Of a stretch of 42,130 nt of DNA, positions 3,131 through 42,130 are shown one piece after another. Made by a program: the position numbers and the translations under genes. The stretch is from Gemmatimonadales bacterium (GTDB lineage: Bacteria; Gemmatimonadota; Gemmatimonadetes; Gemmatimonadales; Gemmatimonadaceae): NCBI GenBank assembly GCA_044449465.1, contig JBIOHX010000001.1, positions 1 through 42,130 on the forward strand, read 5' to 3'. The notes under the pieces were generated by a model. It did not search any database. It saw only the letters and a program-made list of their open reading frames with translations, and was not told the DNA's origin. Numbering within the stretch: the first letter of the stretch is position 1; each line of letters begins with the position of its first letter.

Positions 3131-5794
3131 ATGTCGTTCATTCGACGCCTGCTGCTTCGCTTGCGCGCCGTGGTGTTGGTCGATCGTTTGCGCCGCGAGA
3201 TGGACGAGGAGATGCGCGCGCACCTCGATCTCGCCGCGGAACGGTACATGGCGCGCGGGCTCTCACGCATTGACGCGCGCGTTGCGGCGCGGCGCGAGTT
3301 CGGCAACACCACCGTGCTCGCGGCCGATGCGCGTGCGGCGCGCGGGGCAGGGTGGTCGGAGTCAGTCGCGACGGACCTTAGACTCGCGCTCCGCGGGCTG
3401 CGGCGCACGCCGCTCTTTGCCGCCGTCGCGGTGGTGTCGATCGCGATCGGCGTCGGCGCGACGACGGGGATTCTGGCGGTCGCAAATGCGCTGCTCTTCC
3501 GCGCGCCGGCTGGTGTGGCTGCTCCGGATCGCGTCGTGACCGTGGCGGGCACGCAGAACGGCCACGGCTTCAACAGCATCTCGTACCCCGCGTACCTCGA
3601 CTACGCCCGCGCACCAAGCCTGAGTCGACTTGCCGCAGTCGACCTCGAACCGAAGGCGCTCAGTCTGCTCACGACGCACGGCAGTGAGGCGGTGAAGAGT
3701 AGCGCCGTGTCGGGAAACTTCTTTGCGGTGCTCGGTGCCGAGGCGGAGCTTGGCCGGTTGTTCGGCCCCGACGAAGACAGCGAGTCCAACGCGGCTTCCG
3801 TCGTGGTGCTGAGCGACGCCTATTGGCGCAAGCGCTTTCACGCCGACTCGGCCGTGGTCGGCCGGCCGGTTGCCCTCAAGGGCGCGGCGTTCACGATCGT
3901 TGGCGTGGCATCGCGCGGTTTTCAGGGGCCGTTCGTGATCGCGCCGGATATGTGGATGCCGATCCGCAGCTCGCTGCGGCTGAGCCACAGTGAGCCGATG
4001 CTGACCGAGCGTCATGACTTCTGGGTGATCGGCGTCGGGCGGCTGGCCGGCGGGGCATCGGTAGACGGCGCACAGGCGGAGCTGGGGACGATCACCGATC
4101 GGCTCAGGGCAGCGTATCCCAAGACTGTCGCCGGCATTCAGGTCAGCCCGCTATCGCTCGTCCCCGGTAATGGCCATCAGATCATCGCGGGCTTTATGGC
4201 GGTGCTCGTTGTCGTCGCGGGACTGGTCCTCGTCATCGCGAGCGCGAACGTCGCCGGCATGCTCCTGGCCCGCGCCGCGGCGCGGCAGCGGGAGGTCGCT
4301 GTGCGAATTGCCCTGGGCGCATCGCGATTGCGAATTGCTCGGCAGCTCGTCACCGAGAGTCTCGTCATCGGCGCGGCCGCGGCGGTGATTGGACTGCTGC
4401 TGGCGAACTGGCTCGTGCAAATGCTCATGGCTCTCGTGCCGCGACTGCCGGTTCCCCTCGTCGTGCATCCCACCCTCGACGGCCGTGTCGTGGCCTTCGC
4501 GCTCGGCATCACGCTCCTGACTGCGATCGTGACCGGGCTGCTGCCGGCGCTCCAGAGCACGAAGCCGGACCTCGTGCCCGCGCTCAAGCTAGACGCAGGA
4601 GCCACCCCGCGACGGCAACGGCTTCGCGGCGCACTCGTCGTTTCGCAGATCGCCGTGTCGATGCTCCTCCTGGTCGTCGCGGCGTTGTTCGGGCGAGCGT
4701 TGGTCAAGGCGCGCGCCGTCGACCCGGGGTTCCAGACGCATAACATCGACCTCGTCGACCTCGACCTGAGCCTCGCCGGGTACGACGATCATCGTGGCGC
4801 CACGCAGGCGGTGGCGCTGCTCGGCCTTGTCCGTCGAACGCCTGGCGTAGAGCGCGCCGCGCTGTCAGAGATGGTTCCGCTCACCGGTTCGGCGATGGGG
4901 TTCGGCGCCATCGATGTCGCGGGCCACCCCGCGCCGAAGCCGGAGAACGGTGTCGCGACCGGCTCCTGGTACGCCGACTGGAACGTGGTGAGCCCAGGCT
5001 ACCTCGAGGTGCTGGACATCCCGCTCGTCCGCGGCCGAGCCTTCTCCGACGCGGACCGGGAGGGCGCGCCGAGGGTCGCGATCTGGAACGAGACGTTAGC
5101 CAAGCACGTCTTCGGGACGACCGACGTCGTCGGTCGAACGTTCCGCAACGACAGCAGCACGGTGACCATCGTCGGCGTGGCTCGCGACGCCAAGTATCGC
5201 GCGCTCGACGATCCGCCGATCGACTTCGTCTACGTCCCGATGGCGCAGCACTATAGTGCGCACACCAATCTGTTCGTGCGCGTATCGGACGATCGGGATT
5301 TGTCGGGATCGCTGCGGCGACTGGTCGCCCAGTTCGATCCCCGTCTGCCGGTGCTCGATCAGAGCACGATGGACGACCAAGTCGCGTTCTCACTTTTCCC
5401 GCAGCAACTCGCGCTCTGGATCACTGGTTCGCTCGGCCTCGTCGCCCTGCTCCTGGCGCTACTCGGGATCTACGGCGTAATCGCGTACAGCGTCACGCAG
5501 CGCACGCGCGAGATCGGGGTTCGTGTCGCCCTTGGCGCGGCGCGCGGCACGGTGCTTCGCCTCGTGCTGCGCCAGGGATTGCGTACCGCCGCCGTGGGCG
5601 TGGTCGTCGGCGCGGCGTTGGCCTTCGGAGCCACGCGACTGATCGCGTCATTCCTTTTTGGCGTGTCGTCGACGGATGGCGTCGCGTTCGCGGCCGCGGC
5701 CGCGCTCCTCACTGCGGCCGCACTGACCGCGAGCTGGCTTCCGGCTCGTCGCGCGGCCGCGGTGGATCCGATGGTTGCGCTGAGGGCGGAGTGA
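3131..5794 (+). CDS. ADOP-type (MacB/FtsX-like) duplicated orphan permease
   Basis: An 887-aa ORF. The N-terminus MSFIRRLLLRLRAVV..REMDEEMRAHLD resembles the other copies, and there are two FtsX-like membrane modules. The C-terminus YGVIAYSVTQRTREIGVRVALGA...LPARRAAAVDPMVALRAE is typical of the family. Confidence 0.9.
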   Translation: MSFIRRLLLRLRAVVLVDRLRREMDEEMRAHLDLAAERYMARGLSRIDARVAARREFGNTTVLAADARAARGAGWSESVATDLRLALRGLRRTPLFAAVAVVSIAIGVGATTGILAVANALLFRAPAGVAAPDRVVTVAGTQNGHGFNSISYPAYLDYARAPSLSRLAAVDLEPKALSLLTTHGSEAVKSSAVSGNFFAVLGAEAELGRLFGPDEDSESNAASVVVLSDAYWRKRFHADSAVVGRPVALKGAAFTIVGVASRGFQGPFVIAPDMWMPIRSSLRLSHSEPMLTERHDFWVIGVGRLAGGASVDGAQAELGTITDRLRAAYPKTVAGIQVSPLSLVPGNGHQIIAGFMAVLVVVAGLVLVIASANVAGMLLARAAARQREVAVRIALGASRLRIARQLVTESLVIGAAAAVIGLLLANWLVQMLMALVPRLPVPLVVHPTLDGRVVAFALGITLLTAIVTGLLPALQSTKPDLVPALKLDAGATPRRQRLRGALVVSQIAVSMLLLVVAALFGRALVKARAVDPGFQTHNIDLVDLDLSLAGYDDHRGATQAVALLGLVRRTPGVERAALSEMVPLTGSAMGFGAIDVAGHPAPKPENGVATGSWYADWNVVSPGYLEVLDIPLVRGRAFSDADREGAPRVAIWNETLAKHVFGTTDVVGRTFRNDSSTVTIVGVARDAKYRALDDPPIDFVYVPMAQHYSAHTNLFVRVSDDRDLSGSLRRLVAQFDPRLPVLDQSTMDDQVAFSLFPQQLALWITGSLGLVALLLALLGIYGVIAYSVTQRTREIGVRVALGAARGTVLRLVLRQGLRTAAVGVVVGAALAFGATRLIASFLFGVSSTDGVAFAAAAALLTAAALTASWLPARRAAAVDPMVALRAE

Positions 5795-6965: not shown

Positions 6966-7307
6966 GAGAGAACACCGGCATCGAGCGCGATCGGACGGAC
7001 CGTTCGCAAGCTTCAATCGGCGCGCAGGGCCTCCGCGGGGTCGATTCGAAGCGCGCGCCGCGCATTATCCGACGTCGACGCCGCGCATTGGCCGGTGTCG
7101 TTCCACTAGGTTAGGGGAGATGATGAGAATGCTCGGGCGCGCGGTCAAGCGGCCGCGTCAGGCGCCTCGCCCGCCTCTCGGCATGCCAGACCGCGCCCCG
7201 GCTCGTGGCTGCTCAAACCCAGGCCGTTGCCGGGGTTGCCGAACGCCCAGCACCGAGCTACGGTAACTGCCCCAGTTGTCCGCCTGACCTCTTCCCAGAG
7301 GGGCATC

Positions 7308-7853
7308 GTGAGCGTTACCCAGTCGCTGACCGTCAACGGCACTACGGTCTCCGCGGACGTCGAGCCGCGAACTCTTCTCGTCGACTTCCTTCGGCAACAC
7401 CTCGGCCTCACCGGTACCCACGTCGGATGCGACACGGGCCAATGCGGCGCCTGCACTGTGCACCTGAACGGGATGGCGGTGAAGTCGTGCACTCTTCTCG
7501 TGGCGCAGGCCGCCGGGACGCACGTGACGACGATCGAAGGGCTCGCCGCCCCCGACGGCACGATGCATCCGATGCAGGCGGCGTTCAAAGACTGTCATGG
7601 ATTGCAGTGCGGCTTCTGCACGCCGGGGTTCGTGATGAGCGCGATCGACCTCGTGAACCGCATTCCGGACGCGTCCGAGGAGACGATTCGCGCCGAGGTC
7701 GAGGGTAATCTGTGCCGGTGCACGGGCTACCAGAATATTGTGAAAGCCATCCAGCAAGGGGGCGCGGCGATGAACGAAGCCACTGCCGCGAGCGCCCTGA
7801 AGGCGACCGCGTCGTATCCCTCTCGCAAGGAGGAAACATGGGCGCGAGCTTGA
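7308..7853 (+). CDS. coxS: Aerobic-type CO dehydrogenase / xanthine dehydrogenase family small subunit, 2x[2Fe-2S]
   Basis: Carries the motifs [27 protein letters not shown] and CRCTGYQNI. The track ORF starts at 7227, but the conserved N-terminus ([10 protein letters not shown]) begins at the in-frame GTG at 7308. Confidence 0.9.
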
Positions 7854-10195
7854 TCGGTCAGCCGGTTCGGCGCAAAGAGGACGCGCGCTTTCTCACCGGG
7901 AACGGACGATACACGAACGACCTCGCCGTGAGGAACGCGGCGCATGCGTTCTTCCTTCGCTCGCCCCACGCGCACGCGAAGATCAACTCGGTCGGCGTCA
8001 AGCGCGCGCAGCTCGCGCCCGGCGTGCTTGCCGTGTACACGGCCAACGACTTGACCGGAGTGAACGGGCTGCCCTGTGGTTGGTTGATCACCGGTACCGA
8101 TGGCAAGCCGATGGCCGAGCCACCGCATCCAGTGCTCGCGCAAGGAGCGGCGCGCTACGTCGGCGATCCGGTGGCGCTCGTCGTCGCCGATACGCTCAAC
8201 CATGCGAAGGACGCCGCCGAGTTGATCGAGGTCGACTACGACGTGCTGCCGGCGGTGGTGAATTGCGTCGACGCGCTCAAGGCTGGCGCACCGCAATTAC
8301 ACGAAAGTGCACCGGGCAACAAGTGCTACACGTGGGCGCTCGGTGACAAGGCGGCGGTGGACGCGGCGTTCGCGAGCGCCGCGCACGTGACGAAGCTCGA
8401 CATCGTCAACAATCGGCTGATCCCGAACGCGATCGAGCCGCGCGCCGTGGTCGCGTCGTACAGCCGCGGCGACGACATGTACACGCTTCATGTCGCCAAC
8501 CAGAACCCGCACCTCGAGCGTTTGCTCCTCTCGGCGTTCGTGCTCGGCCTGCCCGAGCAGAAGGTTCGCGTGATCGCGCCCGACGTGGGCGGCGGCTTCG
8601 GGTCCAAGATTTATCTCTATCCCGAAGAGACGGCGATGGTGTGGGCGAGCAAGAAAGTGAGTCAGCCGATCTCGTGGGTCGCCGAGCGAAGCGAGTCGTT
8701 CCTCGCCGATGCGCATGGGCGCGACCACGTCACGCACGCCGAGCTCGCGCTCGATGCGAACGGCAAGTTCCTGGCGATGCGCGTGCAGACTACGGCGAAC
8801 ATGGGCGCGTATCTGTCGACGTTCTCGACTTGCATTCCGACCATCTTGTACGCGACGCTGCTCGCCGGGCAGTACACGACGCCGGCGATCTATTGCCAGG
8901 TGACGGCGTCGTTCACGAACACCGCGCCGGTGGATGCGTATCGAGGCGCCGGACGGCCGGAGGCGACGTTCGTCGTCGAACGGCTCGTGCATCACGCGGC
9001 GGTAGAGATGGGCATCGCGCAGGACGAGATCCGTCGCCGGAATTTCATTCGGTCGTTCCCGTATCAGACGCCGGTCGCGCTTCTATATGACACGGGCGAT
9101 TACGACGCGTCGCTCGCGGGCGCGATGAAGGCCGCCGATGTCGTGGGATTCGCGGCGCGGAAGGCAGAGTCGGCGAACCGTGGTAAGCTCCGCGGCCTCG
9201 GCTACTCGGCGTACATCGAGGCGTGCGGGCTCGCGCCGTCGAACGTCGCCGGCGCACTTGGCGCGCGCGCGGGCCTGTACGAGGCGGGCGAAGTTCGCGT
9301 GAACCCCACAGGAAGCGTCACTGTGTTCACGGGATCGCACTCACACGGCCAGGGACACGAGACGACGTTCGCGCAGGTCGTCGCCGACCGCCTCGGCATC
9401 CCGCTCGAGAACGTCGACGTCGTGCACGGCGACACGGGCCGCGTGCCGTTCGGCATGGGCACGTATGGCTCGCGCTCGCTCGCCGTCGGCGGCTCGGCGA
9501 TCGTCAAAGCCGTCGATAAGATCATCGCGAAGGGAAGGAAAATCGCCGCGCACCTGCTCGAGGCCTCGGACGCCGACATCGAGTTCAAGGACGGCAAGTT
9601 CACGGTCGCGGGCACCGATCGCAGCAAGACGTTCGGCGAGATCGCGCTCACGGCGTACGTGCCGCACAACTATCCACTCGACAAGCTCGAGCCAGGCCTC
9701 GACGAAACGGCATTCTACGATCCGACGAACTTCACGTTCCCGGCGGGCACGCATCTTTGCGAGGTCGAGATCGATCCCGAGACGGGCGTGGTATCGGTCG
9801 AAGCATTCACGGCGTGCGACGACTTCGGCACCATCATCAACCCGATGATCGTCGAAGGCCAAGTCCACGGCGGGCTCGCGCAGGGCATCGGCCAAGCACT
9901 GCTCGAGCAGTGCGTCTACGATCAAGAGAGCGGACAACTGCTCACCGGCAGTTTGATGGATTACGCACTGCCGCGAGCGGACGATCTTCCGCACTTCAAC
10001 GTCTCGCACACCGTCACGCCATGTACGCACAACCCGCTCGGCGCAAAGGGCTGCGGCGAAGCGGGAGCGATCGGCGCACCGGCCGCGCTCATGAACGCGG
10101 TCATGGACGCGCTGGCGCCGGTCGGCGTGACACACCTCGACATGCCCGCCTCTCCGCACCGTGTCTGGCAGGCCATTCGCGCGGCGCGCGCCTAA
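7838..10195 (+). CDS. coxL: Molybdopterin-binding large subunit, form II CoxL-like (AYRGAGR active-site loop)
   Basis: ATG at 7838 is preceded by AAGGAGGA and gives [21 protein letters not shown].... The active-site loop AYRGAGR is encoded at 8936-8956. The track ORF start at 7712 is an upstream extension that overlaps coxS. Confidence 0.9.
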
Positions 10196-10210
10196 GGGAG
10201 GGCCATCACA

Positions 10211-11002
10211 ATGTACTCATTCGAGCTGGTACGTCCGACGACGCTTGCCGCGGCCTCCGCGGCGTTGACGAGCAGTGGCGGGAAGGCCCTTGCCGGCGGC
10301 CAAAGCCTGCTCGCGGCGATGAAGCTTCGACTCGCGCAACCAGGAACGCTCGTCGACCTCTCCGGAATCGCGGAGCTCAAGGGCATCGCGCGGAGCGCGG
10401 ATACCGTCACGATCGGCGCGTTGGCGACGCACACCCAGGTCGCCGAATCGAGCGTCGTACGCGAGGCGATTCCGGCGCTGGCGGAGTTGGCGCACGGCAT
10501 CGGCGACCGGCAGGTGCGCAATGTCGGCACGCTCGGCGGATCGATCGCGCACAACGATCCGGCGGCGTGCTATCCGGCGGCACTGCTGGCGCTCGGCGCG
10601 ACGATTCGCACGACGGCGCGCCTGATCCCCGCCGATGAGTTCTTCAAGGGCATGTACGAGACGGCGCTTGGCGATGGTGAGATCATCACGTCGGTGTCGT
10701 TCCCGATCCCGCGGAAGGCGGCGTATGTGAAGTTTGCCAATCCCGCGTCGCGGTTCGCGCTCGTGGGCGTCTTCGTTGCTCAGACGGCGACCGGCGTTCG
10801 CGTCGCGGTGACCGGGGCGGCACCGTCGGTCTTCCGCTCGAAGGAATTGGAAACGGCGTTCACTCGGAGCTTCACCGCTGACGCGGCCAAGGCGGTGACC
10901 GTGAGTGCGTCGGGCCTGAACGGCGACCTGCACGCGTCGCCGGAGTATCGGGCGCACCTCATTCCAGTGCTCGCGCGCCGTGCCGTTGCCGCCGCCGGCT
11001 GA
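10211..11002 (+). CDS. coxM: FAD-binding medium subunit of the CO dehydrogenase / xanthine dehydrogenase family
   Basis: A 263-aa ORF MYSFELVRP...LAGGQSLLAAMKLRL... with a FAD_binding_5-type N-terminus and a CO-dehydrogenase flavoprotein C-terminal domain. Confidence 0.9.
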   Translation: MYSFELVRPTTLAAASAALTSSGGKALAGGQSLLAAMKLRLAQPGTLVDLSGIAELKGIARSADTVTIGALATHTQVAESSVVREAIPALAELAHGIGDRQVRNVGTLGGSIAHNDPAACYPAALLALGATIRTTARLIPADEFFKGMYETALGDGEIITSVSFPIPRKAAYVKFANPASRFALVGVFVAQTATGVRVAVTGAAPSVFRSKELETAFTRSFTADAAKAVTVSASGLNGDLHASPEYRAHLIPVLARRAVAAAG

Positions 11003-11933
11003 AAAGCAGCCGGCGCGCGGCGCCTCGATCAAACTCTCGTCCGTCGACGACGTCGTCGAGCTGCTCGAGGCCCAAGACTACCTGGCCGATCGGCAACTGG
11101 CGACGTCGGTCTTTCTCAGCCTCACCATGGCGCGTCCCCTCTTTCTCGAGGGCGAGGCCGGCTGTGGCAAGACGGAGCTCGCCAAGGTCCTCGCGGCGGC
11201 GCTGGGCACACGGCTCGTGCGATTGCAGTGCTATGAAGGCCTGGACGTCGGGTCCGCGGTGTATGAGTGGAACTATCCGAGGCAGATGATCGAGATTCGC
11301 CTGGCGGAGGCGAGTGGCACCATAGATCGTGCGGGACTGGGTGCGGATATCTTCACGCGCCGGTTTCTGCTGCGGCGTCCGTTGCTCGAGGCGCTGGCGC
11401 CTGAGGACGGAGTCGCGCCCGTGCTCTTGATCGACGAGCTCGATCGCGCCGACGAGCCGTTCGAAGCGTATCTGCTCGAGGTGTTGGCGGAATATCAGGT
11501 GACGATTCCGGAGCTCGGCGTCATCAAGGCGGCGACCCCGCCGGTCGTGGCGATCACGTCGAATCGGACACGGGAGATTCACGACGCGGTCAAGCGCCGC
11601 TGCCTCTATCAGTGGGTCGGCTATCCGGATGCGCAGCGGGAGCTGGCGATCGTCCGGCGGAAGTGCCCTCGAGCGCCGGCGGCCCTGGCGCGCGAGATCG
11701 TAGAGTTCACGCAGCGGCTTCGCGCTTTAGAGCTGTTCAAATCGCCGGGCGTGGCGGAGACGTTGGACTGGGCGGAGGCGCTCGTGACACTCGATCGGGT
11801 GTCGCTCGACCGCGAGACCGTTGCCGACACGGCGGGGGTGCTGCTCAAGTATCAGGACGACGTGGGCGTGTTGACGCCGGATGTAACGGCGAGGCTCGTC
11901 GACGAAGCACGCGCCGCGGCAAGGTCGGCGTGA
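10980..11933 (+). CDS. coxD: MoxR-like AAA+ ATPase (CoxD-type maturation factor)
   Basis: Walker A GEAGCGKT and Walker B LLIDELDRAD are present, with a YEWNYPRQMIEIRL segment. A GTG start at 10980 overlaps the coxM end by 23 nt, and there is no later plausible start. Confidence 0.85.
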   Translation: MPLPPPAEKQPARGASIKLSSVDDVVELLEAQDYLADRQLATSVFLSLTMARPLFLEGEAGCGKTELAKVLAAALGTRLVRLQCYEGLDVGSAVYEWNYPRQMIEIRLAEASGTIDRAGLGADIFTRRFLLRRPLLEALAPEDGVAPVLLIDELDRADEPFEAYLLEVLAEYQVTIPELGVIKAATPPVVAITSNRTREIHDAVKRRCLYQWVGYPDAQRELAIVRRKCPRAPAALAREIVEFTQRLRALELFKSPGVAETLDWAEALVTLDRVSLDRETVADTAGVLLKYQDDVGVLTPDVTARLVDEARAAARSA

Positions 11934-11942
11934 TCGGCTGAG

Positions 11943-13130
11943 ATGATGCCGACGGGGCGCCTCGCCGAGAACATCGTGCATTTCGTGCGACTGCTGCGCG
12001 CGGCGGGAATTCCCGTTGGACCGGAGCGTTCGGTCGCGTCGCTCGAAGCCGTGCAAGCGGTGGGCATCTCGAATCGGGACGATTTCCGCGCGGCGTTGGC
12101 GGCGGTGCTGATCTCGCGCCAGGAGCATCGGGAGCTTTTCGATGAAGCATTCGGTGTGTTCTGGCGTAATCCGAAGCTTACGCAAAAGAGAATGGCGTCG
12201 TTGCTGCCGAAAGTGCAGGCCCAAGCCCCGCCCGAGGGAGAGCAAGTGTCCCCGAGGCTCGCTGCGGCGTTCGTCGGCTCGGCGGTTCGCGAAGCGTTCG
12301 ACAGCGAAATGGACGAGGTGCAGTTCGACGCGTCGTTCACATTCTCACCGACGGAGGTGCTGCGGCACCGCGACTTCGAGGCGATGACCGCCGACGAGCT
12401 CGCGGCGACTCGCTCGATGCTCGCGCGACTACGCCTGCCACTGCCCGAGCTTCCCACCCGGCGGAGCAAGCCAGCCGTTCGAGGGCAGGGCATCGATGTG
12501 CGCCGCACCATGCGACGGGCGACGACCGGCGCCGGCGCGCTCGTCCCGCTGGCGCGACGGCAGCGCCGGCGGAGAGGGCCGTCGCTCGTCATACTGTGCG
12601 ACATCTCGGGGTCGATGGACAGCTACTCGAGAATACTCATGCACTTTCTCCACACGGTCACGAACGATCGCGATCGCGTTCATGTGTTCGTGTTCGGGAC
12701 GCGGCTCACGAACGTGACGCGCCAGCTGCGGCATCGGGACGTGGACGTCGCGCTCAAGCGTGTGGGCGCCGCCGCATCCGATTGGGCGGGAGGGACGCGG
12801 ATCGGCGCTTGCCTCACCGAGTTCAACAAGCGGTGGTCTCGCCGCGTGCTCGCGCAGGATGCGATCGTGCTTCTCATCAGCGACGGGCTGGATGCCGACG
12901 CCGGCGAGGCGCTGGCGCCGCAAATGGACCGGCTTTCGAGATCGTGCCGGCGTGTGGTCTGGCTCAACCCGTTACTCCGTTACGACCGCTTCGAGCCGAG
13001 GCCGGCGGGGATTCGAGCGATGCTGCCGTATGTCGACGACTTTCTGCCGTGTCACAACGTGGACAGCGTCGTCGCGCTCGCGGCGGCGTTTGATGCGATG
13101 TCCGGGAACCGGAGCCGTGCATGGAGATGA
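11943..13130 (+). CDS. coxE: VWA-domain protein (CoxE-type)
   Basis: A 395-aa ORF. The N-terminus LAENIVHFVRLLRAAGIPVG and the MIDAS motif ILCDISGSMDSYS are typical of CoxE / VWA proteins paired with MoxR ATPases. Confidence 0.85.
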   Translation: MMPTGRLAENIVHFVRLLRAAGIPVGPERSVASLEAVQAVGISNRDDFRAALAAVLISRQEHRELFDEAFGVFWRNPKLTQKRMASLLPKVQAQAPPEGEQVSPRLAAAFVGSAVREAFDSEMDEVQFDASFTFSPTEVLRHRDFEAMTADELAATRSMLARLRLPLPELPTRRSKPAVRGQGIDVRRTMRRATTGAGALVPLARRQRRRRGPSLVILCDISGSMDSYSRILMHFLHTVTNDRDRVHVFVFGTRLTNVTRQLRHRDVDVALKRVGAAASDWAGGTRIGACLTEFNKRWSRRVLAQDAIVLLISDGLDADAGEALAPQMDRLSRSCRRVVWLNPLLRYDRFEPRPAGIRAMLPYVDDFLPCHNVDSVVALAAAFDAMSGNRSRAWR

Positions 13131-13705
13131 CGGGAACGAGCGACGTGCCGGCCGCGCCAGACGCAGTCTGGTGCGCGCTCAACGATCCAGCCGTGCTGCG
13201 GGCCTGCATCGCCGGCTGCGAGTCGCTCGAGCCCACTGGTGAGCATTCTTACGCGATGGTGCTGGCGGCGAAGGTCGGGCCGGTCGCCGCACGATTCACG
13301 GGCACGATGCGTCTCGCCGACATCGATCCGCCCCGATCGTACACACTGCGTTTCGAGGGAAGCGGCGGCGTGGCCGGCTTCGCGAAAGGCGAGGGGCGGG
13401 TGACGCTCGTTCCCACTGGCGGTGATTCCACGAAGCTCGAGTACGTGGCGACGGCACAAGTGGGGGGCAAGCTGGCGCAGATCGGATCGCGGCTCATCGA
13501 CGGCGTCGCGCACAAGATGGCCAACGATTTCTTCGAGCGATTCGTCGCATCGGTGAGCCCGCCGCCGGTGGCCGCTCCACTCGTGGCCGCGGCCGACAAC
13601 CCGCGCGCGCCGACGTTTCGCCATTGGCGCGGCCTGGGTTATGCCGTCATCGCGAGCCTGTTCGTGCTGCTCGCGATCATGCTATTCAGGCGTGGGGCGC
13701 CGTAG
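13121..13705 (+). CDS. coxG: SRPBCC-fold CoxG-type protein with a C-terminal hydrophobic anchor
   Basis: A 194-aa ORF. The pattern ...PDAVWCALNDPAVLRACIAGCESLE...GPVAARFTG...GGKLAQIGSRLIDGVAHKMANDFFERF matches CoxG. The tail GLGYAVIASLFVLLAIMLF looks like a transmembrane helix. Confidence 0.85.
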   Translation: MEMTGTSDVPAAPDAVWCALNDPAVLRACIAGCESLEPTGEHSYAMVLAAKVGPVAARFTGTMRLADIDPPRSYTLRFEGSGGVAGFAKGEGRVTLVPTGGDSTKLEYVATAQVGGKLAQIGSRLIDGVAHKMANDFFERFVASVSPPPVAAPLVAAADNPRAPTFRHWRGLGYAVIASLFVLLAIMLFRRGAP

Positions 13706-19843: not shown

Positions 19844-20482
19844 ATGCGCCAATCCACTGCCGAGATCATTCGCGAGTACGGCCCGTTTCCGCGGGCGAAG
19901 AACATAGGCGGCGTCACCTACGATGGTCAGTCCGTGTGGTTCGCCGCCGGGGATGCCGTGCGCGCATTCGACCCCGCGACAGGCGAGGAGCGCGATGCGA
20001 TCGAGGTGCCGGCGCACGCTGGTACGGCGTTCGACGGCCAATTTCTCTATCAGATCGCCGAAGCACGAATCAACAAGATCGATCCAAAGACCCGGCGCGT
20101 GGTGTCGACGATTCCGGCACCCAGCGGGGGTGGCGATTCGGGACTAGCATGGGCGGAAGGGACGCTCTGGGTCGGCGAGTATCGCGCGCGAAAGATTCAT
20201 CAGATCGATCCGGAAACCGGAGCGATTCTTCGCACGCTCGAATCCAACCGGTTCGTCACGGGCGTTACGTGGGTCGAGGGCGAGCTGTGGCACGCCACCT
20301 GGGAGGGCGACGAGAGCGATCTTCGTCGCATCGATCCGAGCTCGGGCGCGGTGCTCGAACAATTGGAGATGCCCGCGGGCGTCAAGGTCTCGGGGCTCGA
20401 ATCGGACGGGAAGGATCGATTCTATTGCGGTGGTGGAAATAGCGAGACGGTGCGGGCGGTGCGTCGGCCGGGAAGGGCGTGA
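19844..20482 (+). CDS. Beta-propeller repeat protein, glutamine cyclotransferase-like
   Basis: A 212-aa ORF starting 10 nt after the regulator stop. Repeated blades such as KIDPKTRRVV, HQIDPETGAILRTL and RRIDPSSGAVLEQL, with W-containing strands, resemble plant/bacterial-type glutaminyl cyclase propellers. The family assignment is tentative. Confidence 0.5.
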   Translation: MRQSTAEIIREYGPFPRAKNIGGVTYDGQSVWFAAGDAVRAFDPATGEERDAIEVPAHAGTAFDGQFLYQIAEARINKIDPKTRRVVSTIPAPSGGGDSGLAWAEGTLWVGEYRARKIHQIDPETGAILRTLESNRFVTGVTWVEGELWHATWEGDESDLRRIDPSSGAVLEQLEMPAGVKVSGLESDGKDRFYCGGGNSETVRAVRRPGRA

Positions 20483-20483
20483 C

Positions 20484-20602
20484 GTGGGTCGTGGGTCGTG
20501 GGTCGTGGGTCGTGGGTCGTGGGTCGTGGATCGTGGATCGTGGATCGTGGATCGTGGATCGTGGATCGTGGATCGTGGGACGCGGGACGTGGGACGTGGA
20601 TG
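20484..20602. repeat. 7-bp microsatellite of 17 head-to-tail units
   Basis: Counted directly: 6x GTGGGTC (20484-20525), 7x GTGGATC (20526-20574), GTGGGAC, GCGGGAC, GTGGGAC and GTGGATG (20575-20602). The array starts 2 nt after the TGA at 20480-20482. Confidence 0.95.
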
Positions 20603-20652
20603 GATACGAGATTGGCGATTCCTTGCCTGGTGCGACGTCAAAGTGTTTAGAT

Positions 20653-20790
20653 CCGTTTGTGTCCGCTTGTGTCCGCTTGTGTCTTTCACCAATCGTTACG
20701 GCCAGCCCGAGCGGCAGTTCAGCGTCCTCGCCGCATGCAGACCATAACAATTGGACACCGATTAAAACGGACACAAGCGGACACGGGCGG
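20653..20790. repeat. Inverted 10-mer iteron pair flanking a spacer of about 86 nt
   Basis: Three direct units CCG(T/C)TTGTGT lie at 20653-20682. Inverted copies lie at 20767-20790 (ACGGACACAAGCGGACACGGGCGG). GACACAAGCGGACAC (20770-20784) is the exact reverse complement of GTGTCCGCTTGTGTC, which occurs in two registers (20659-20673 and 20669-20683). Confidence 0.9.
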
Positions 20791-20866
20791 ATGGCTGGGA
20801 CGCCCGATCGCGCGGTGGCCGCGCATGACTGCTCGGTCGCGTCGGCCGAAGCCGCGGTGACTTCGC

Positions 20867-21628
20867 CCGGTGCGGCTGGGAGTGCGTCCGGTGCGGTTGG
20901 GAGTGCGTCCGAAGCGGCAGGGAGTGCGTCCGGTGCGGTACGGAGTGCATCCGGTGTGGCACACAGTGCGTCCGAGGCGGCAGGGAGTGCGGGCCGCGAT
21001 CGAATCACTGCGTCCGGTCGTGGGCGCGCCGCGTCCGATGGCTCGGAGACCACGGAGTGACGACGTGTGAGCGCGCCATGCGGCTCGTGCACGGCGCCAG
21101 GTCGCCCGGAGACTGCGCCAGGAAGCAAAGCGACTGCGCCAGGAAGCAAAATGACCACGCCATGACATTCGGGGCCGGCGGGCGATCGCAGAGTCGCCGC
21201 GACGTGTCGCGGGTTTACGGCGGCATCTCGCAGGGTCGCGCGGCCGGATCGCAGAGTGACTTCGCCATGACGCAGAGTGGCCGCGCCTTGGCGCAAGGTG
21301 ACTACGCCGTGCTGCCCGATCGCCCGGGCAGACTGCAGGATCGCATCGGAGCAGTCCAGAGTGACGCCGGCCGATCGCAAAGTGGCGGCGACGTGGCGTA
21401 AAGTGGGATTGCCAGCTCGCAGAGTGGTGTCGGCAGCGGCGAAAGTCGCGGCGCCCAGCTGCAGGGTGGCGGCGGGATGCCCGGCGATGACGAGTCGATG
21501 CTGCAGACTCGTCGCGTCAGGTCGCAGAGTGAGCGCGGGGCAAAGCAAAGTGCGCGCGGGGCAAAGCAAAGTGAGCGCGGGGCAAAGCAGAGTGACCGCG
21601 AGGCAAAGCAGAATGAGCGCGCCTGAGG
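20867..21628. repeat. Degenerate tandem array with a strict 21-bp register (about 36 units, several sub-families)
   Basis: Six units of CCGGTGCGG(C/T)TGGGAGTGCGT type span 20867-20992, and 2x GACTGCGCCAGGAAGCAAA.. span 21111-21152. CGCAGAGT occurs exactly at 21187, 21250, 21271, 21418 and 21523, all offsets being multiples of 21, with 1-2 nt variants at 21229, 21292, 21376, 21397 and 21460. Five units of GCA(G/A)A(G/A)TG.GCGCGGGGCAAA type span 21524-21628. Confidence 0.9.
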
Positions 21629-21803
21629 GCGCGGTGGGCAGAGAGGTTGGCTGGCGGTCCGGCTTCGCCACTCGAGTCCGCACTGGGTTCGCGATGCTCG
21701 TCGCCGTGCGTCGTCATCGACGGAGCGCGTCTCGCGAAGCGGCGGCGCAAGGGGTGTCGCTGTAGCGGTTCGCCGGCGGGGCAGCGCGGGCGCTGTCGCG
21801 GAG

Positions 21804-36406: not shown

Positions 36407-36718
36407 ATGGAGGCGGGTGTGCGCATTCTCTGGACGCTACTCAAGATCGCGATCGGACTCGCCATTGCGATCCCGGTCGGGCTGTTCGTGATGGCGATGA
36501 CGGTCGGCATCGTCGGCACGGTGGTGGGATTGGTGGCGATGGCCGTGCGCCTCGCGTGCATCGGGCTGGTGGGCTACGGACTGTACCGAGTCGGGCGCTT
36601 CTTCTTCGCGCCACGGGGCAGGGCGAGGCATGAGATGCCCGTTGTGCGGGAGCTGCCGAGCGCGGATCCGTACTACGCGGCAGCAATGCGAGAGCTCGAT
36701 TCCGAGCTGCGCGGGTGA
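36407..36718 (+). CDS. Small hypothetical membrane protein
   Basis: A 103-aa ORF with an ATG start. Two long hydrophobic helices (ILWTLLKIAIGLAIAIPVGLFVMAMTVGIVGTVVGLVAMAVRLACIGLVGYGLY) precede a charged tail. I recognise no family. Confidence 0.45.
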   Translation: MEAGVRILWTLLKIAIGLAIAIPVGLFVMAMTVGIVGTVVGLVAMAVRLACIGLVGYGLYRVGRFFFAPRGRARHEMPVVRELPSADPYYAAAMRELDSELRG

Positions 36719-36720
36719 CC

Positions 36721-37033
36721 GGTCAGATTTGAGGCGTCAGGCTCGAGATGTCAGGGTGACGCCTCGAGGGCGGCGTGCGGGGGTTTGGATCGCGACGTTT
36801 CTGAACGAGACCAAGCGTCGGGATTTCAGGGTAGAGGTACGAGGATGGAGATAGGGGCGAACTCAGACGTCGACGGTCTAGGCCGGCGCGTCTCGTTTCG
36901 CCCTTAGCTCGCTTCTGCCGTCTGGACGCCGAGTTCTCGACGCTTGGGCTCGCTCTGCGACGTCGCGATCTCGATCAGCCCCCGCGATCCCGAATCTCGA
37001 CTGACATCTCGAGTCTGAGGCCTCAGATCTGAG
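36721..37033. repeat. Long imperfect palindromic intergenic element (MITE/REP-like), copy E1
   Basis: The terminal inverted repeats TCAGATTTGAGGCGTCAGGCTCGAGATGTCAG (36722-36753) and the reverse complement of 37000-37031 match at 29 of 32 positions. Internal arm segments also pair: 36776-36797 with 36959-36984, and 36806-36826 with 36929-36950. The perfect palindrome CCTCAGATCTGAGG lies at 37020-37033. The element starts 3 nt after the stop codon at 36716-36718. Confidence 0.85.
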
Positions 37034-37094
37034 GGGCGCGGTAAGTCAACGGAGTGGCGCCACTTCCGGCCCCGGCGTGTCGTGTGATGTTTAG

Positions 37095-38699: not shown

Positions 38700-38844
38700 C
38701 GAAGGTGTCCGTTTTCGGACGATGCGTCCCACTGATGGACAAGCGTCGTCATCGCCGGGGCCGCGGATCTGCGTCTAAGTGCTTGGGGGGCATGGCGATC
38801 GCGACGTACGAACGGGGCACACCGGATGCACCTACCCCGGCGCC

Positions 38845-41292
38845 ATGACGACCTTCCTTCGCGACGTTCGCTACGCAGTTCGCAAGCTGCTGTCGACGCC
38901 CGGCTTCACCGTTGTCACGCTGATCACGTTGAGCGTCGCGATCGGCGCGACGACGTCGATGTTCAGCGTCGTGAATAGCATTCTGCTCAAGCCGCTGCCA
39001 TTTGCGGATCCGGCCGGGCTCGCGTTCATCGAGTCGACCGATCCCAGTGGCCAGCCAATGCCGCTGTCGCCGCAGGACCTCGCCGACTATGGGAAGGGAA
39101 GCACGGCCTTCACGGCGATTGCCGCAGTCGACGGCGGCAAGAGCGCGAACCTCGATCGCACGAACGCGGCCGCGGCACGCCTGAACGAGGCGCGCGTTGG
39201 CGCGGACTTCTTTTCCATCCTCGGGGTCCGGCCCGCGCTGGGCCGTTTCTTCGCGCCGGGCGAGGACTCGTTGTCGTCACCCAAAGTGGCGGTGCTCTCG
39301 CAGATGGCCTGGGCGAAGTACTTCGGCGGTGATACGCGGGTCATCGGCCAGTCGATCGTACTGGACGGCAAGGCGTTTCGAGTGGTTGGGATCGCGCCGC
39401 CGACGCTCACCTATCCCGGCAACCCAGAGATCTGGATTCCGGCGGCCTGGCAGTCGTACGAGATCGGCGAACGGGCGCGCGGGTACCACTCGGTCACCGC
39501 GATCGGCCGCCTTGCGCCTGGAGCGACGACGGAAAGTGCAGCGCGCCAGCTCCAGACGATCGCAGCGCGTCTCGCGCGGGAGCATCCGGAATACAACGCG
39601 AAGGTCGGTGCGTTCGTGAATTCGCTCCAGGAGCAGATCGTCGGCGACGTGGGTCAGGCGCTGTGGCCGATGCTCGGAGCTGTGGCGTTCGTGCTGCTGA
39701 TCGCGTGCACGAACGTGGCCAATCTGCTGCTCGTTCGCGCGGCCGGCCGAGCGCCGGAAATAGCGGTGCGCTCGGCGCTTGGCGCGGATCGCGCGGGCAT
39801 CGTTCGGCAGCTCGTGGTCGAGAGTCTGGTGCTCGCGGCCGGGGGTGCAGTGCTCGGGACGCTGGTTGCGCTCTGGATACTGAGCGCGCTGGCGACGCTT
39901 GGGCCGCGCTCAGTGCCGCGCATCGGCGAGATTGCCGTCGACGGCCGCGTCCTCGCCTTCACCGTGTGCGTCGCAATCGTGACTGGGTTGCTGTTTGGAT
40001 TGGCGCCGGCAATTCACGCGGCGCGCTCGGACACCTCCGCGCTGCTGCGCGGCGGACGCGGCTCGAGCGGCGGCACGAGGCGCGTCCGCTCGACGCTCGT
40101 CGTCGCGGAGACCGCGCTGTCGATGGTGCTGCTAGTAGGCGCAGGGCTGCTCATGCGCAGCTTCGATCGGCTCACGCGCGTCGATCCTGGGTTTCGCGCG
40201 AACCATCTCGTGGTGTTCAATACCGCGCTCTCGAACCATAAGTATGACTACGAGAACGCGGTGATCCAGTTCGCGAGCGATGTGCGCTCTCGCCTCTCTG
40301 CGCTTCCCGGAGTACAAGCCGTCGCCGTGGCAGCTGACCGGCCGTTCGACCCAGAGCCCCAGTTCGGCGCCTCCACCTCGTTCACGATCGAGGGGGACCC
40401 GAAGCCGCAACAGGGCACAGAGCCCGAGTCGCGCATCCTGCCGGTGACGCCGAGCTTCTTCACGACGTTGGGAGTGACGCTCAAGCGGGGGCGGGCATTC
40501 GATGAGACGGAGAACCGACTAGCCGCGCTGCCCGTCGTGGTCGTCAATGAAGCGCTGGCGAAGCGGTACTTCCCGGGGCGCGATCCGATTGGCAAGCACC
40601 TCACCTTTGGCCTTTCACACAACACGACGCCGGACCCCGCTGACACGGTGCGACTGCGCGGCGAGGTGATCGGAGTCGTGAAGGACGTGACGAACTCCGC
40701 ACTCGGCGCAGTGCCCGGGCCGGCCGCGTACTTCCCGTACAACGCGGCGCCGTTCGCGGCGACATTCGTGGCACGGGTCACCGGCGATCCGTCGCTGGTG
40801 GAAGGGGCCGCGTATCGCATCGTGCACGACGTCGACGCGAGTGCCGCTGTGTACGAAGTCGGCACGATGGACGACGCGATGTCTGCGACGGTGGCGCAAC
40901 CGCGCTTCTATACAATACTGCTCGGAGCATTCGCGGGGGTCGCGCTGCTGTTGGCGACGCTCGGGATCTTCGGGGTCGTGTCGTACTCAGTGCGCCAGCG
41001 CACGCGCGAGTTCGGCATTCGGATCGCGCTCGGCGCGCAGGCGGAACGCGTCGCCGGCGGCGTGGTCCGCGGCGGCCTCCAGCTGGCGTTCGTGGGGATC
41101 GTCGCGGGAGCCATAGGAGCGGGGGTGATGACGCGTGCGATCCGCGGGATGCTGTTCGGAACGGATCCGCTGGATGTGGCGACGTACGTTGGGGTGGGGG
41201 CGCTGCTGGTGGGCGTGGCGGCGGTAGCGGCGTGGCTGCCGGCGCGGCAGGCGGCACGAGTGGATCCGGTGATCGCGATGAAGGCGGAATGA
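38845..41292 (+). CDS. ADOP-type (MacB/FtsX-like) duplicated orphan permease
   Basis: The sequence from the ATG at 38845 is MTTFLRDVRYAVRKLLSTPGFTVVTLITLSVAIGATT.... The C-terminus is FGVVSYSVRQRTREFGIRIALGA...LPARQAARVDPVIAMKAE. The track start at 38779 is an upstream extension. Confidence 0.9.
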   Translation: MTTFLRDVRYAVRKLLSTPGFTVVTLITLSVAIGATTSMFSVVNSILLKPLPFADPAGLAFIESTDPSGQPMPLSPQDLADYGKGSTAFTAIAAVDGGKSANLDRTNAAAARLNEARVGADFFSILGVRPALGRFFAPGEDSLSSPKVAVLSQMAWAKYFGGDTRVIGQSIVLDGKAFRVVGIAPPTLTYPGNPEIWIPAAWQSYEIGERARGYHSVTAIGRLAPGATTESAARQLQTIAARLAREHPEYNAKVGAFVNSLQEQIVGDVGQALWPMLGAVAFVLLIACTNVANLLLVRAAGRAPEIAVRSALGADRAGIVRQLVVESLVLAAGGAVLGTLVALWILSALATLGPRSVPRIGEIAVDGRVLAFTVCVAIVTGLLFGLAPAIHAARSDTSALLRGGRGSSGGTRRVRSTLVVAETALSMVLLVGAGLLMRSFDRLTRVDPGFRANHLVVFNTALSNHKYDYENAVIQFASDVRSRLSALPGVQAVAVAADRPFDPEPQFGASTSFTIEGDPKPQQGTEPESRILPVTPSFFTTLGVTLKRGRAFDETENRLAALPVVVVNEALAKRYFPGRDPIGKHLTFGLSHNTTPDPADTVRLRGEVIGVVKDVTNSALGAVPGPAAYFPYNAAPFAATFVARVTGDPSLVEGAAYRIVHDVDASAAVYEVGTMDDAMSATVAQPRFYTILLGAFAGVALLLATLGIFGVVSYSVRQRTREFGIRIALGAQAERVAGGVVRGGLQLAFVGIVAGAIGAGVMTRAIRGMLFGTDPLDVATYVGVGALLVGVAAVAAWLPARQAARVDPVIAMKAE

Positions 41293-41666
41293 CTCAGATC
41301 TGAGGGTCTGAGAGATATGAGATATGAGATGTGAGGGTTCAGGGCGGCGCCTGGGGCGGTGCGCTGGGCGGATATCGCGACGTCGTTGAGCGAGATCAAG
41401 CGTCGAGATGTCAGCGTCGAGATGGCAGAACGGAGATAGGGGCGATGCGAGATGGCAGAACGGAGATAGGGGCGATGCGAGATGGCAGAAGGGGAGATAG
41501 GGGCGATGTGAGATGGGCCGGGGCATACCGCCGACGTCTGACATCGCTGTCATCTCCGGACTTGGATCTCGCAGCTGATTTCTCGAAGCTTGGTCTCGTT
41601 TAGAGACGTCGGGGTCTCGAACGACAAGCGCGCTCTCCAACGTCGACTGAGAACTCCAATCTCAAC
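41293..41666. repeat. Long imperfect palindromic intergenic element (MITE/REP-like), copy E2
   Basis: It fills the whole gap between two convergent ADOP genes. It begins with the palindrome CTCAGATCTGAG (41293-41304) directly after the TGA at 41290-41292. The left-arm core 41376-41414 and the reverse complement of the right-arm core 41575-41613 each match E1 36790-36828 at 32 of 39 positions. Confidence 0.85.
41421..41511. repeat. Three tandem copies of a 30-bp unit inside E2
   Basis: GATGGCAGAACGGAGATAGGGGCGATGCGA occurs at 41421-41450 and identically at 41451-41480. A 31-bp variant lies at 41481-41511. Each copy contains the 14-mer GGAGATAGGGGCGA, which is also present in E1 at 36846-36859. 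Confidence 0.95.
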
Positions 41667-42130
41667 TCATCCGGATCGGAGGGCCTCGGATGGATCGACT
41701 GCGGCTGCGCGCCGTGCTGGGATCCAGCTGGCGGCGAGGGCAACGAGGAGTAGGGTGACGCACGTTCCGACGAGAATCGTGGGGTCGGTGGGGCTCACGT
41801 CGTAGAGCAACGAGCGCAGGAACCTCGTCACGCCGATGGCCGTGGCGACGCCGATGGCGACGCCGATGGCGGCGAGGCCGACGCCGTCGCGCGAGATCAT
41901 TCGCCGGACCTGCGACGGTTGCGCGCCGAGGGCGATGCGCACGCCAATCTCGCGCCGCCTCAGGCTCACGCCGTAGGCCATGACCGCGTAGAGGCCGACT
42001 GCGCCGAGGACGAGTGCGAGAAGGCTGGCGACGGCGACGAGGAGCAGCATTTCGCGGGCGCGTGCCGACGCGGCGCTGACGAGGTCGCCGAGGGGCTTCT
42101 CACCGTACGTCGGCAGCGACGGGTCGAGCG
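41667..42130 (-). CDS. ADOP-type permease, C-terminal part only (N-terminus beyond the window end)
   Basis: The frame is open to base 42130 (...LDPSLPTYGEKPLGDLVSAASARAREMLLLVAVASLLALVLGAVGLYAVMAYGVSLRRREIGVRIALGA...IPARRAAAVDPSEALRSG). The track lists only the part from an internal Met. Confidence 0.85.
   Translation of the reverse strand, partial: LDPSLPTYGEKPLGDLVSAASARAREMLLLVAVASLLALVLGAVGLYAVMAYGVSLRRREIGVRIALGAQPSQVRRMISRDGVGLAAIGVAIGVATAIGVTRFLRSLLYDVSPTDPTILVGTCVTLLLVALAASWIPARRAAAVDPSEALRSG

Follow-up and report, generated by a model that had tools for sequence, protein, structure and literature searches.

Two homologous long-palindrome repeats at gene 3' ends in an uncultured Gemmatimonadaceae bacterium and their strand-asymmetric predicted fold

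Three repeat loci on a soil contig from an uncultured member of the Gemmatimonadaceae begin directly at stop codons. This raises the question of whether they form one dispersed family that targets gene ends, as an original prediction had proposed, and of what such elements might do. The window analyzed here is the complete contig of 42,130 nt, with 66.5% G+C and ~40 genes. Its gene content includes several ADOP-type duplicated permeases with PadR regulators, a CO-dehydrogenase-like cluster and histidine kinases. Named homologs of the window permease are found at 50-58% identity, all of them in Gemmatimonadaceae. Searches for exact protein matches to two ORFs of the window gave no entry. No tRNA and no Rfam family match was detected in the window, and the genes of the 42-kb contig include neither a transposase nor an integrase. 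At 7227-13705, genes for a MadB-like AAA ATPase, a MadC-like VWA protein and CoxG come after a CoxSML-like molybdenum hydroxylase cluster, which is ordinary context and bears no relation to the repeats.

The two loci at the center of this study are termed E1 and E2. They had been described as modular elements with a simple-sequence head, a core and a long palindrome. This plan turned out to be a mis-parse, as the core sits in both arms of one palindrome that spans the whole element (Table 1). Both elements have arms with a 7/14-nt periodicity composed of degenerate GAGAT units. In E1 the hairpin base begins at 36718 and the terminal motif 4 nt past the stop codon of a small membrane protein gene, whose GC3 of 0.83 is as usual for coding sequence here. 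The terminal inverted repeats of E1 pair 36723-36754 with 37001-37032 over 32 nt at 91% complementarity. The start of E2 lies 1 nt past the stop codon at 41292, and its last bases are the stop codon of the convergent gene; its right end lacks the terminal motif CTCAGATCTGAG.

Table 1 Positions of E1, E2 and their parts in the window.
Feature	Position	Strand	Remark
E1	36719-37045	+	One whole-length imperfect palindrome, ~327 nt; apex near 36876-36887
E1 left arm	36719-36881	+	
E1 right arm	36882-37045	+	
Stop codon (TGA) of the small membrane protein ORF upstream (103 aa, 36407-36718)	36716-36718	+	
E1 left terminal inverted repeat	36723-36754	+	Begins with TCAGATTTGAGG
E1 left-arm core	36789-36823	+	ATCGCGACGT..CGAG..CAAGCGTCGGGA; exact pattern match, alignment of halves
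E1 right-arm core	36935-36969	-	Left-arm core box inverted; pattern match, alignment of halves
E1 right-arm stretch like sister-species spacer	36959-36990	+	25/32 identical to L012 3189-3220
E1 right terminal inverted repeat	37001-37034	+	Includes perfect 14-nt palindrome CCTCAGATCTGAGG (37021-37034)
TGA stop of permease 38779-41292	41290-41292	+	Position kept in 87%-identical ortholog
E2	41293-41669	+	Imperfect palindrome, ~377 nt; whole stop-to-stop spacer of two convergent ADOP-type permease genes
E2 left terminal motif CTCAGATCTGAG	41293-41304	+	Small local hairpin with 41305-41312
GAGATAT x3.4 (simple-sequence head of E2)	41312-41335	+	
E2 left-arm core	41374-41408	+	Pattern match, alignment of halves
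30-nt tandem repeat x3.3 in E2	41418-41516	+	Two copies identical, third 96%
E2 right-arm core	41581-41615	-	Inverted; pattern match, alignment of halves
E2 right-arm stretch like sister-species spacer	41604-41635	+	26/32 identical; flanking genes 82-84%
Convergent permease stop	41667-41669	-	Within outermost E2 stem

Two tandem expansions, GAGATAT x3.4 and the 30-nt unit x3.3, are present in E2 and absent from E1. The heptamer array is a slippage expansion of a GAGATGT unit that occurs singly in E1 (36746-36752). The 30-nt array looks like recent slippage because two of its copies are identical, it is confined to the left arm and the extra copies are mostly unpaired near the apex. Thus the elements change by slippage, as the perfect 30-nt and 7-nt tandem duplications in E2 show. 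The heptamer expansion also places a TGA in all three frames just past the permease stop.

An assembly artefact can be ruled out for E1, as E1 is an imperfect palindrome in the contig interior and was also recovered in an independent assembly. That assembly is an ENA contig (L004), the only other public sequence of the host species; it is 99.8% identical and carries E1 with a single SNP. This independent confirmation covers E1 only, not E2. The middle 2690 nt of the ENA contig are 99.78% identical to the window, and its ends (1-33 and 2724-2730) do not match, owing either to an artefact at the assembly ends or to rearrangement in the population sampled.

Neither element appears to code for protein. 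The open frames of E1 and E2 have no homologs: six-frame translations of the joined elements used as a protein query returned no match at E <= 10, and an HMMER search of the 124-aa minus-frame ORF of E2 against 1.84 billion representatives retrieved unrelated low-complexity repeat proteins only. At the Rfam gathering score no match to E1 or E2 was obtained. In E-value mode the only match, below threshold, was to the plant family MIR1437 at 36777-36985 (37 bits versus a gathering score of 168, E 1e-4), which reflects a generic long-hairpin shape only.

Are E1 and E2 related to each other? Their shared blocks had been called too long for chance, and this holds: the core pattern, a 30-nt degenerate pattern with up to 3 mismatches allowed, gives 4 matches where 0.00 are expected. 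In a blastn comparison of E1 with the rest of the window, only E2 was retrieved, with E-values of 8e-17, 4e-14, 1.5e-13 and 4e-8, and all matches outside E2 had E >= 0.47. The individual blocks are real, although some coordinates needed correction by one position. E1 36790-36828 matches E2 at 32/39 positions as proposed, but at 41375-41413 rather than 41376-41414; its match to the reverse complement of E2 lies at 41576-41614 with 31/39 identities, not at 41575-41613 with 32/39. The 14-mer GGAGATAGGGGCGA does occur four times, at 41432, 41462 and 41493 and, in E1, at 36847 instead of 36846. The start motif TCAGATYTGAGG is present at 36723 and 41294, and again at 37023 at the right end of E1, but is missing from the third repeat locus, near 20.5 kb.

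Moreover, all four half-elements, i.e., the ~150-nt arms, align with one another in both the half-element profile and blastn. Whole E1 and E2 share a consensus hairpin of 119 pairs, 6 of which are kept through two-sided changes and ~17 through one-sided changes. The four arms are equidistant, with ~60% identity overall and ~80% in the core. Arm columns of the types AABB, ABAB and ABBA number 4, 7 and 6, so that within-element compensatory columns are not in excess, as far as two copies can tell. Because the arms are about equidistant and a compensatory excess is absent, the copying is old, and both copies have remained hairpins ever since. Taken together, the alignments support the assignment of E1 and E2 as homologous copies of one element type.

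The locus near 20.5 kb had been counted, tentatively, as a third member. A convergently flanked, non-coding spacer of 1.3 kb (20483-21803) opens directly past the stop at 20482 with a (CGTGGGT/CGTGGAT) x16.7 heptamer array. It further contains a separate palindrome of 142 nt (20651-20792) composed of decamers TCCGCTTGTG, with z -7.1 on the plus and -8.9 on the minus strand, as well as ~750 nt of 21-nt periodic arrays (20846-21023, 21109-21162, 21250-21308 and 21524-21621). A coding reading of these repeats was rejected; since no frame shows the GC1/2/3 coding signature of the genome, the 433-aa ORF on the minus strand (20382-21683) is probably spurious. The proposed resemblance of 20603-20640 to E2 did not survive, as its best local alignment score of 18 was equalled by 261 of 1000 shuffles. 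The half-element profile found 0 matches at this locus even at E 10, and blastn of E1 gave nothing there. With profile, local alignment and blastn all negative, the 20.5-kb locus was rejected as a family member. Its palindrome is unrelated in sequence to E1 and E2, and palindromes composed of short tandem units therefore occur in the contig in two independent forms. The idea of one family thus stands for E1 and E2 and falls for the third locus.

All three loci do adjoin stop codons, as had been noted, with the E1 base at 36718, E2 after 41292 and the heptamer array at 20483 after 20482. This adjacency is no proof of targeting, since every element filling a 3' spacer will start at a stop codon.

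The predicted RNA folds of both elements are very stable and depend on the strand. On the plus strand, E1 reaches -199.2 kcal/mol (z -12.8) and E2 -185.9 kcal/mol (z -7.1), compared to -168.0 and -138.5 kcal/mol on the minus strand, so that the plus folds are better by 31 (E1) and 47 (E2) kcal/mol. For both elements the plus strand is the sense strand of the gene directly upstream. Base composition explains part of the energy gap, and inter-arm mismatches were therefore counted directly. The arm alignment of E1 comprises 113 Watson-Crick matches, 12 transition mismatches that give G.U on the plus strand and 2 that give G.U on the minus strand; the corresponding numbers for E2 are 95, 14 and 3. 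Both elements together thus show 26 G.U-on-plus versus 5 G.U-on-minus mismatches (binomial p 1.9e-4), whereas strand-symmetric decay of a DNA palindrome, taken as the null, predicts 1:1. In the minimum free energy structures, 24 inter-arm G.U pairs form on the plus and 6 on the minus strand. The sole SNP in E1 between the window and the ENA contig changes a U-A pair into U.G on the plus strand. Strand-biased deamination could have contributed to the asymmetry; the background skew is weak. E1 and E2 have one orientation in common, relative to transcription as well as to replication.

The preference for the plus fold and the 26:5 asymmetry point to selection on a single-stranded fold, the simplest form of which would be an RNA hairpin in the 3' untranslated region. 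With moderate confidence, we favor an explanation in which a lineage-restricted long-palindrome repeat that does not code for protein is represented by the two copies E1 and E2 and acts as a 3'-end RNA hairpin. Each element of ~330-375 nt, with its two ~150-nt arms of degenerate 7/14-nt GAGAT-type units, would be transcribed as the 3' untranslated end of the upstream gene, transcription being an assumption of the model. On the sense strand it would then fold into an interrupted RNA stem of ~100-110 bp beginning at the stop codon. Sense-strand transitions that keep a G.U pair would be tolerated and those giving A.C purged, which would mean that the fold itself is under selection. By analogy with ERIC-, Correia- and REP-type repeats, the predicted role is that of a 3'-end barrier, acting as a termination or a stability/processing structure. 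The second copy may have arisen by trans-mobilization in the manner of a MITE or by ectopic copying.

An intrinsic (Rho-independent) terminator was considered and rejected; no terminator-like site is predicted at the ends of E1 or E2, and no U-tract or T-run follows the stems.

The asymmetry does not separate RNA from single-stranded DNA, because G.T wobble also stabilizes ssDNA hairpins, and strand-asymmetric wobble is likewise seen at sites recognized as ssDNA. Integron attC sites, moreover, lie at gene 3' ends and so resemble E1 and E2 in placement. E1 and E2 might accordingly be read as strand-specific ssDNA hairpins for a recombinase or transposase, comparable to attC, IS200/IS605 or REP-RAYT substrates. 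However, no integrase, HUH or Y1 transposase gene is found in the contig, no RYYYAAC/GTTRRRY core sites are present at the element ends, and attC or REP are shorter than E1 and E2 by a factor of 3-6. In addition, the stretch that separates E1 from E2 is ancestral in a sister species that lacks E2. We therefore consider an ssDNA substrate very improbable. Direct comparison with attC (RYYYAAC...GTTRRRY, 57-141 nt) led to the same rejection: the elements end in TCAGATYTGAGG / CTCAACTCA, exceed 300 nt and have no integrase in the contig.

Still more improbable, in our view, is an array of protein-binding sites in duplex DNA, in which GAGAT boxes recur every ~14-15 nt, direct within an arm and inverted between arms, for instance a site for nucleoid, partition or regulator proteins, or else a cruciform. 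The 7/14-nt periodicity, the repeated GAGAT units and the palindromic terminal box with its GATC would suit such an array. The strand-specific wobble asymmetry, on the other hand, is unexpected for duplex sites, and further points against an array are the degeneracy of the units, the lack of a linked candidate binding protein and the absence of anything similar in relatives. Beyond the terminal box CTCAGATCTGAG, several arm units also hold GATC (AGATCT, GGATCG and CGATC within 36716-37045 and 41290-41669).

How old are the elements, and how did the second copy arise? Orthologs of the window permease form a graded series with 87, 75, 69, 59 and 58% identity. The closest one lies on a contig from a JGI soil metagenome (L012), which is syntenic on both sides of the E2 site, with both stop codons conserved and flanks of 81.7% and 84.4% nucleotide identity to the window. 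E2 is missing there, and the stop-to-stop spacer measures 44 nt versus 374 nt in the window; E2 was therefore gained or lost since the species split. The site qualifies only in part as an empty orthologous site: the spacer is short, but it keeps a 32-nt piece resembling the right arms of E2 (26/32) and E1 (25/32) and is not clean. The similarity of the 44-nt spacer to E2 (score 34) was above all 2000 shuffles and all 1975 control 44-mers, and the score of 29 against E1 was equalled by 3 of 1500 control 44-mers. The identity of the 32-nt piece to E2 is about equal to that of the flanking genes. From this identity, the piece may be a relic of an ancestral element or the ancestral seed of E2, as it fits either. 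The more distant permease homologs (L013, L014, L018 and L015-17; 75, 69, 59 and 58%) have other downstream neighbors and 37-201-nt spacers free of unusual hairpins, and neither a long palindrome nor a profile match was found at these loci. A homolog of the FAD-monooxygenase with 68% identity (L005) was rejected as a comparison, as it is not syntenic.

Further copies were sought in several sequence sets. Within the window, profile, motif and blastn searches gave no third copy or relic of E1/E2, and the half-element profile found no further copy in ~150 kb of fetched loci, of which ~64 kb are distinct DNA of relatives. Scans with the core patterns of 185,579 GTDB species genomes, JGI metagenomes and IMG/VR, sets that do not include the host genome, yielded no copies; most copies diverged by 20% would escape exact core patterns. 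The matches obtained, 1 in GTDB (an actinobacterial spacer), 2 in JGI (in apparently coding DNA) and 6 in IMG/VR, were treated as chance because only the ~30-nt pattern region fits the half-element profile. A blastn search of E1 against PLSDB plasmids returned no match, and the two protein-space searches described above, which could also have revealed copies annotated as ORFs, brought none to light. The known copies are therefore two, 4.6 kb apart within the 42-kb contig, and two copies are a thin basis for a family.

These results bear on a local origin, which is the main rival to our explanation and which we regard as possible, if rather unlikely. Here slippage and template switching (inverted duplication) would have built up the palindrome within a single 3' spacer, and ectopic recombination or repair would have copied it once to a neighboring spacer 4.6 kb off, with neither dispersal nor targeting. 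A local origin would account for finding only two copies, which bracket the FAD-monooxygenase and permease genes, and no others in GTDB, JGI, IMG/VR, protein-space searches or the fetched loci. It would also suit the 32-nt piece of the sister species, which resembles an orthologous ancestral spacer taken into E2, and the ongoing slippage in E2. Furthermore, the tandem-built palindrome at 20651-20792 implies that the host genome makes such structures. However, E1 and E2 have unrelated flanks, which means that copying was confined to the element, and the left boundaries at TCAGATYTGAGG are sharp. The equidistant arms imply old copying with both copies retained as hairpins, and the searches covered the contig and relatives rather than the rest of the host genome.

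A scan over all boundary choices found no target-site duplication, with just a 2-bp 'GG' around E1 and nothing at E2. Together with the lack of a transposase in the contig, this is in line with a local origin and speaks against a classical DNA-level MITE, i.e., a deletion derivative of an IS that is moved in trans by a transposase recognizing the terminal inverted repeats, with the hairpin as a by-product. The 32-nt terminal inverted repeats of E1 with their 91% complementarity, the terminal motif CTCAGATCTGAG common to both elements, the two copies at non-homologous sites, the presence that differs between close species, and a size and foldability within the MITE range (PMC3184786) all fit a MITE. 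Yet E2 lacks the right terminal motif, the 'empty' site of the sister species is not clean, no transposase or IS lies within the 42 kb and no copies occur in the public data scanned. In addition, the 26:5 G.U asymmetry would not be expected if only the duplex DNA form of the structure mattered. A classical MITE is thus unlikely.

The original prediction had stated that no such element family is described. This is wrong in kind, as long-hairpin repeats of the MITE and ERIC type are known from gene 3' ends (PMC3184786). For MITE-type repeats of up to ~400 bp located at the 3' ends of genes, long RNA stem-loops, co-transcription and an effect on mRNA stability have been described (PMC3184786). 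Those with whole-length hairpins include Correia/CREE, Nezha, Chunjie and MaeMITE (150-435 bp), and like these E1 and E2 are non-coding and intergenic with very stable predicted long RNA stem-loops (PMC3184786). Their size falls into the reported upper range and, as for hairpin MITEs, their presence varies between close relatives (PMC3184786). Small size (<~400 bp) without a transposase gene applies to both E1 (327 nt) and E2 (377 nt), and terminal inverted repeats are found in E1 (32 nt, 91%) and partly in E2, which has the left motif only. E1 and E2 differ from MITEs in that they are known in only two copies, lack a target-site duplication and have no cognate IS or transposase in the contig. 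E2 furthermore lacks one terminus, the sister-species site keeps an internal arm piece, and the arms are made of 7/14-nt tandem units. We claim only that the elements work like MITEs and are of the same kind, because the target-site duplication is lacking and copy number and empty sites leave membership undecided.

The best functional analogy is ERIC (IRU, including its Yersinia relatives), with which E1 and E2 share the form of imperfect palindromes with a conserved core. ERIC elements lie in transcribed 3' regions, are co-transcribed, fold in the mRNA and alter upstream mRNA stability (PMC3184786). ERIC-, Correia- and REP-type repeats are in general co-transcribed, form stable RNA stem-loops and influence mRNA stability, and REPs favor convergent spacers (PMC3184786). 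ERICs are ~127 bp long, flanked by TA and present in many copies in Enterobacteriaceae; E1 and E2 are ~330-375 nt long, have no TA flanks and belong to Gemmatimonadota, a distinction drawn by description rather than by consensus comparison. Membership in ERIC/IRU was rejected on length (327-377 nt), TA flanks and host. Similarly, REP/BIME elements are G+C-rich extragenic palindromes with a convergent-spacer bias and an effect on mRNA stability (PMC3184786), in which E1 and E2 are alike. REPs are stem-loops of 20-40 nt, usually clustered and tied to RAYT transposases, whereas E1 and E2 show one interrupted stem per site with ~100-110 inter-arm pairs and no RAYT, and REP/BIME membership was rejected as well. 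Reportedly, REPs near a stop codon can interfere with translation termination, as Liang et al. are said to have described in 2015. Cyanobacterial STRR sequences are short tandem heptamers located in intergenic DNA downstream of genes, which recalls GAGATAT x3.4 in E2 and CGTGGGT x16.7 at 20483. In contrast to these plain tandem arrays, the E2 heptamers belong to an arm of a long palindrome; the units also have unrelated sequences. On balance, we judge the E1/E2 family to be small, lineage-restricted, hairpin-forming intergenic repeats of the familiar MITE/ERIC kind.

A further reading combines local birth with spread. Native stop-adjoining 3' spacers would be turned into long palindromes by slippage and template switching, selected as RNA or ssDNA hairpins, and would then reach the ends of further genes through a copying process that is specific for the hairpin or the strand and uses neither target-site duplication nor a classical transposase. 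We consider this improbable. If true, Gemmatimonadota would have a palindromic 'satellite' of gene 3' ends that is independent of transposases, and the palindrome at 20651-20792 would be a second, independent birth.

Returning to the 3'-end RNA hairpin, its weight depends on how far the family extends. If it proved to span the genome, no long-hairpin intergenic repeat would have been described in Gemmatimonadota before it, and it would offer a handle on the shaping of mRNA 3' ends in a phylum with almost no molecular genetics, and the asymmetry of G.U versus A.C would serve as a sequence-only test of RNA versus DNA selection on such repeats. As it stands, it is a two-copy element of one uncultured species and opens no new question. 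For annotation, E1 and E2 should not be called as ORFs; they explain oversized spacers and mark spacers that are labile.

The surroundings of E2 show a symmetry of their own. The C-terminal coding DNA of the ADOP permease paralogs at 40939-41040 and 41920-41998 is 72-74% identical, and the similarity extends at 72-74% to 103-204 and 5441-5539. Since the C-termini of the paralogs are alike, the convergent pair around E2 constitutes a gene-scale inverted repeat with E2 at its center. The sister-species contig, without E2, carries a gene-scale permease inverted repeat too (3146-3172 / 3319-3345).
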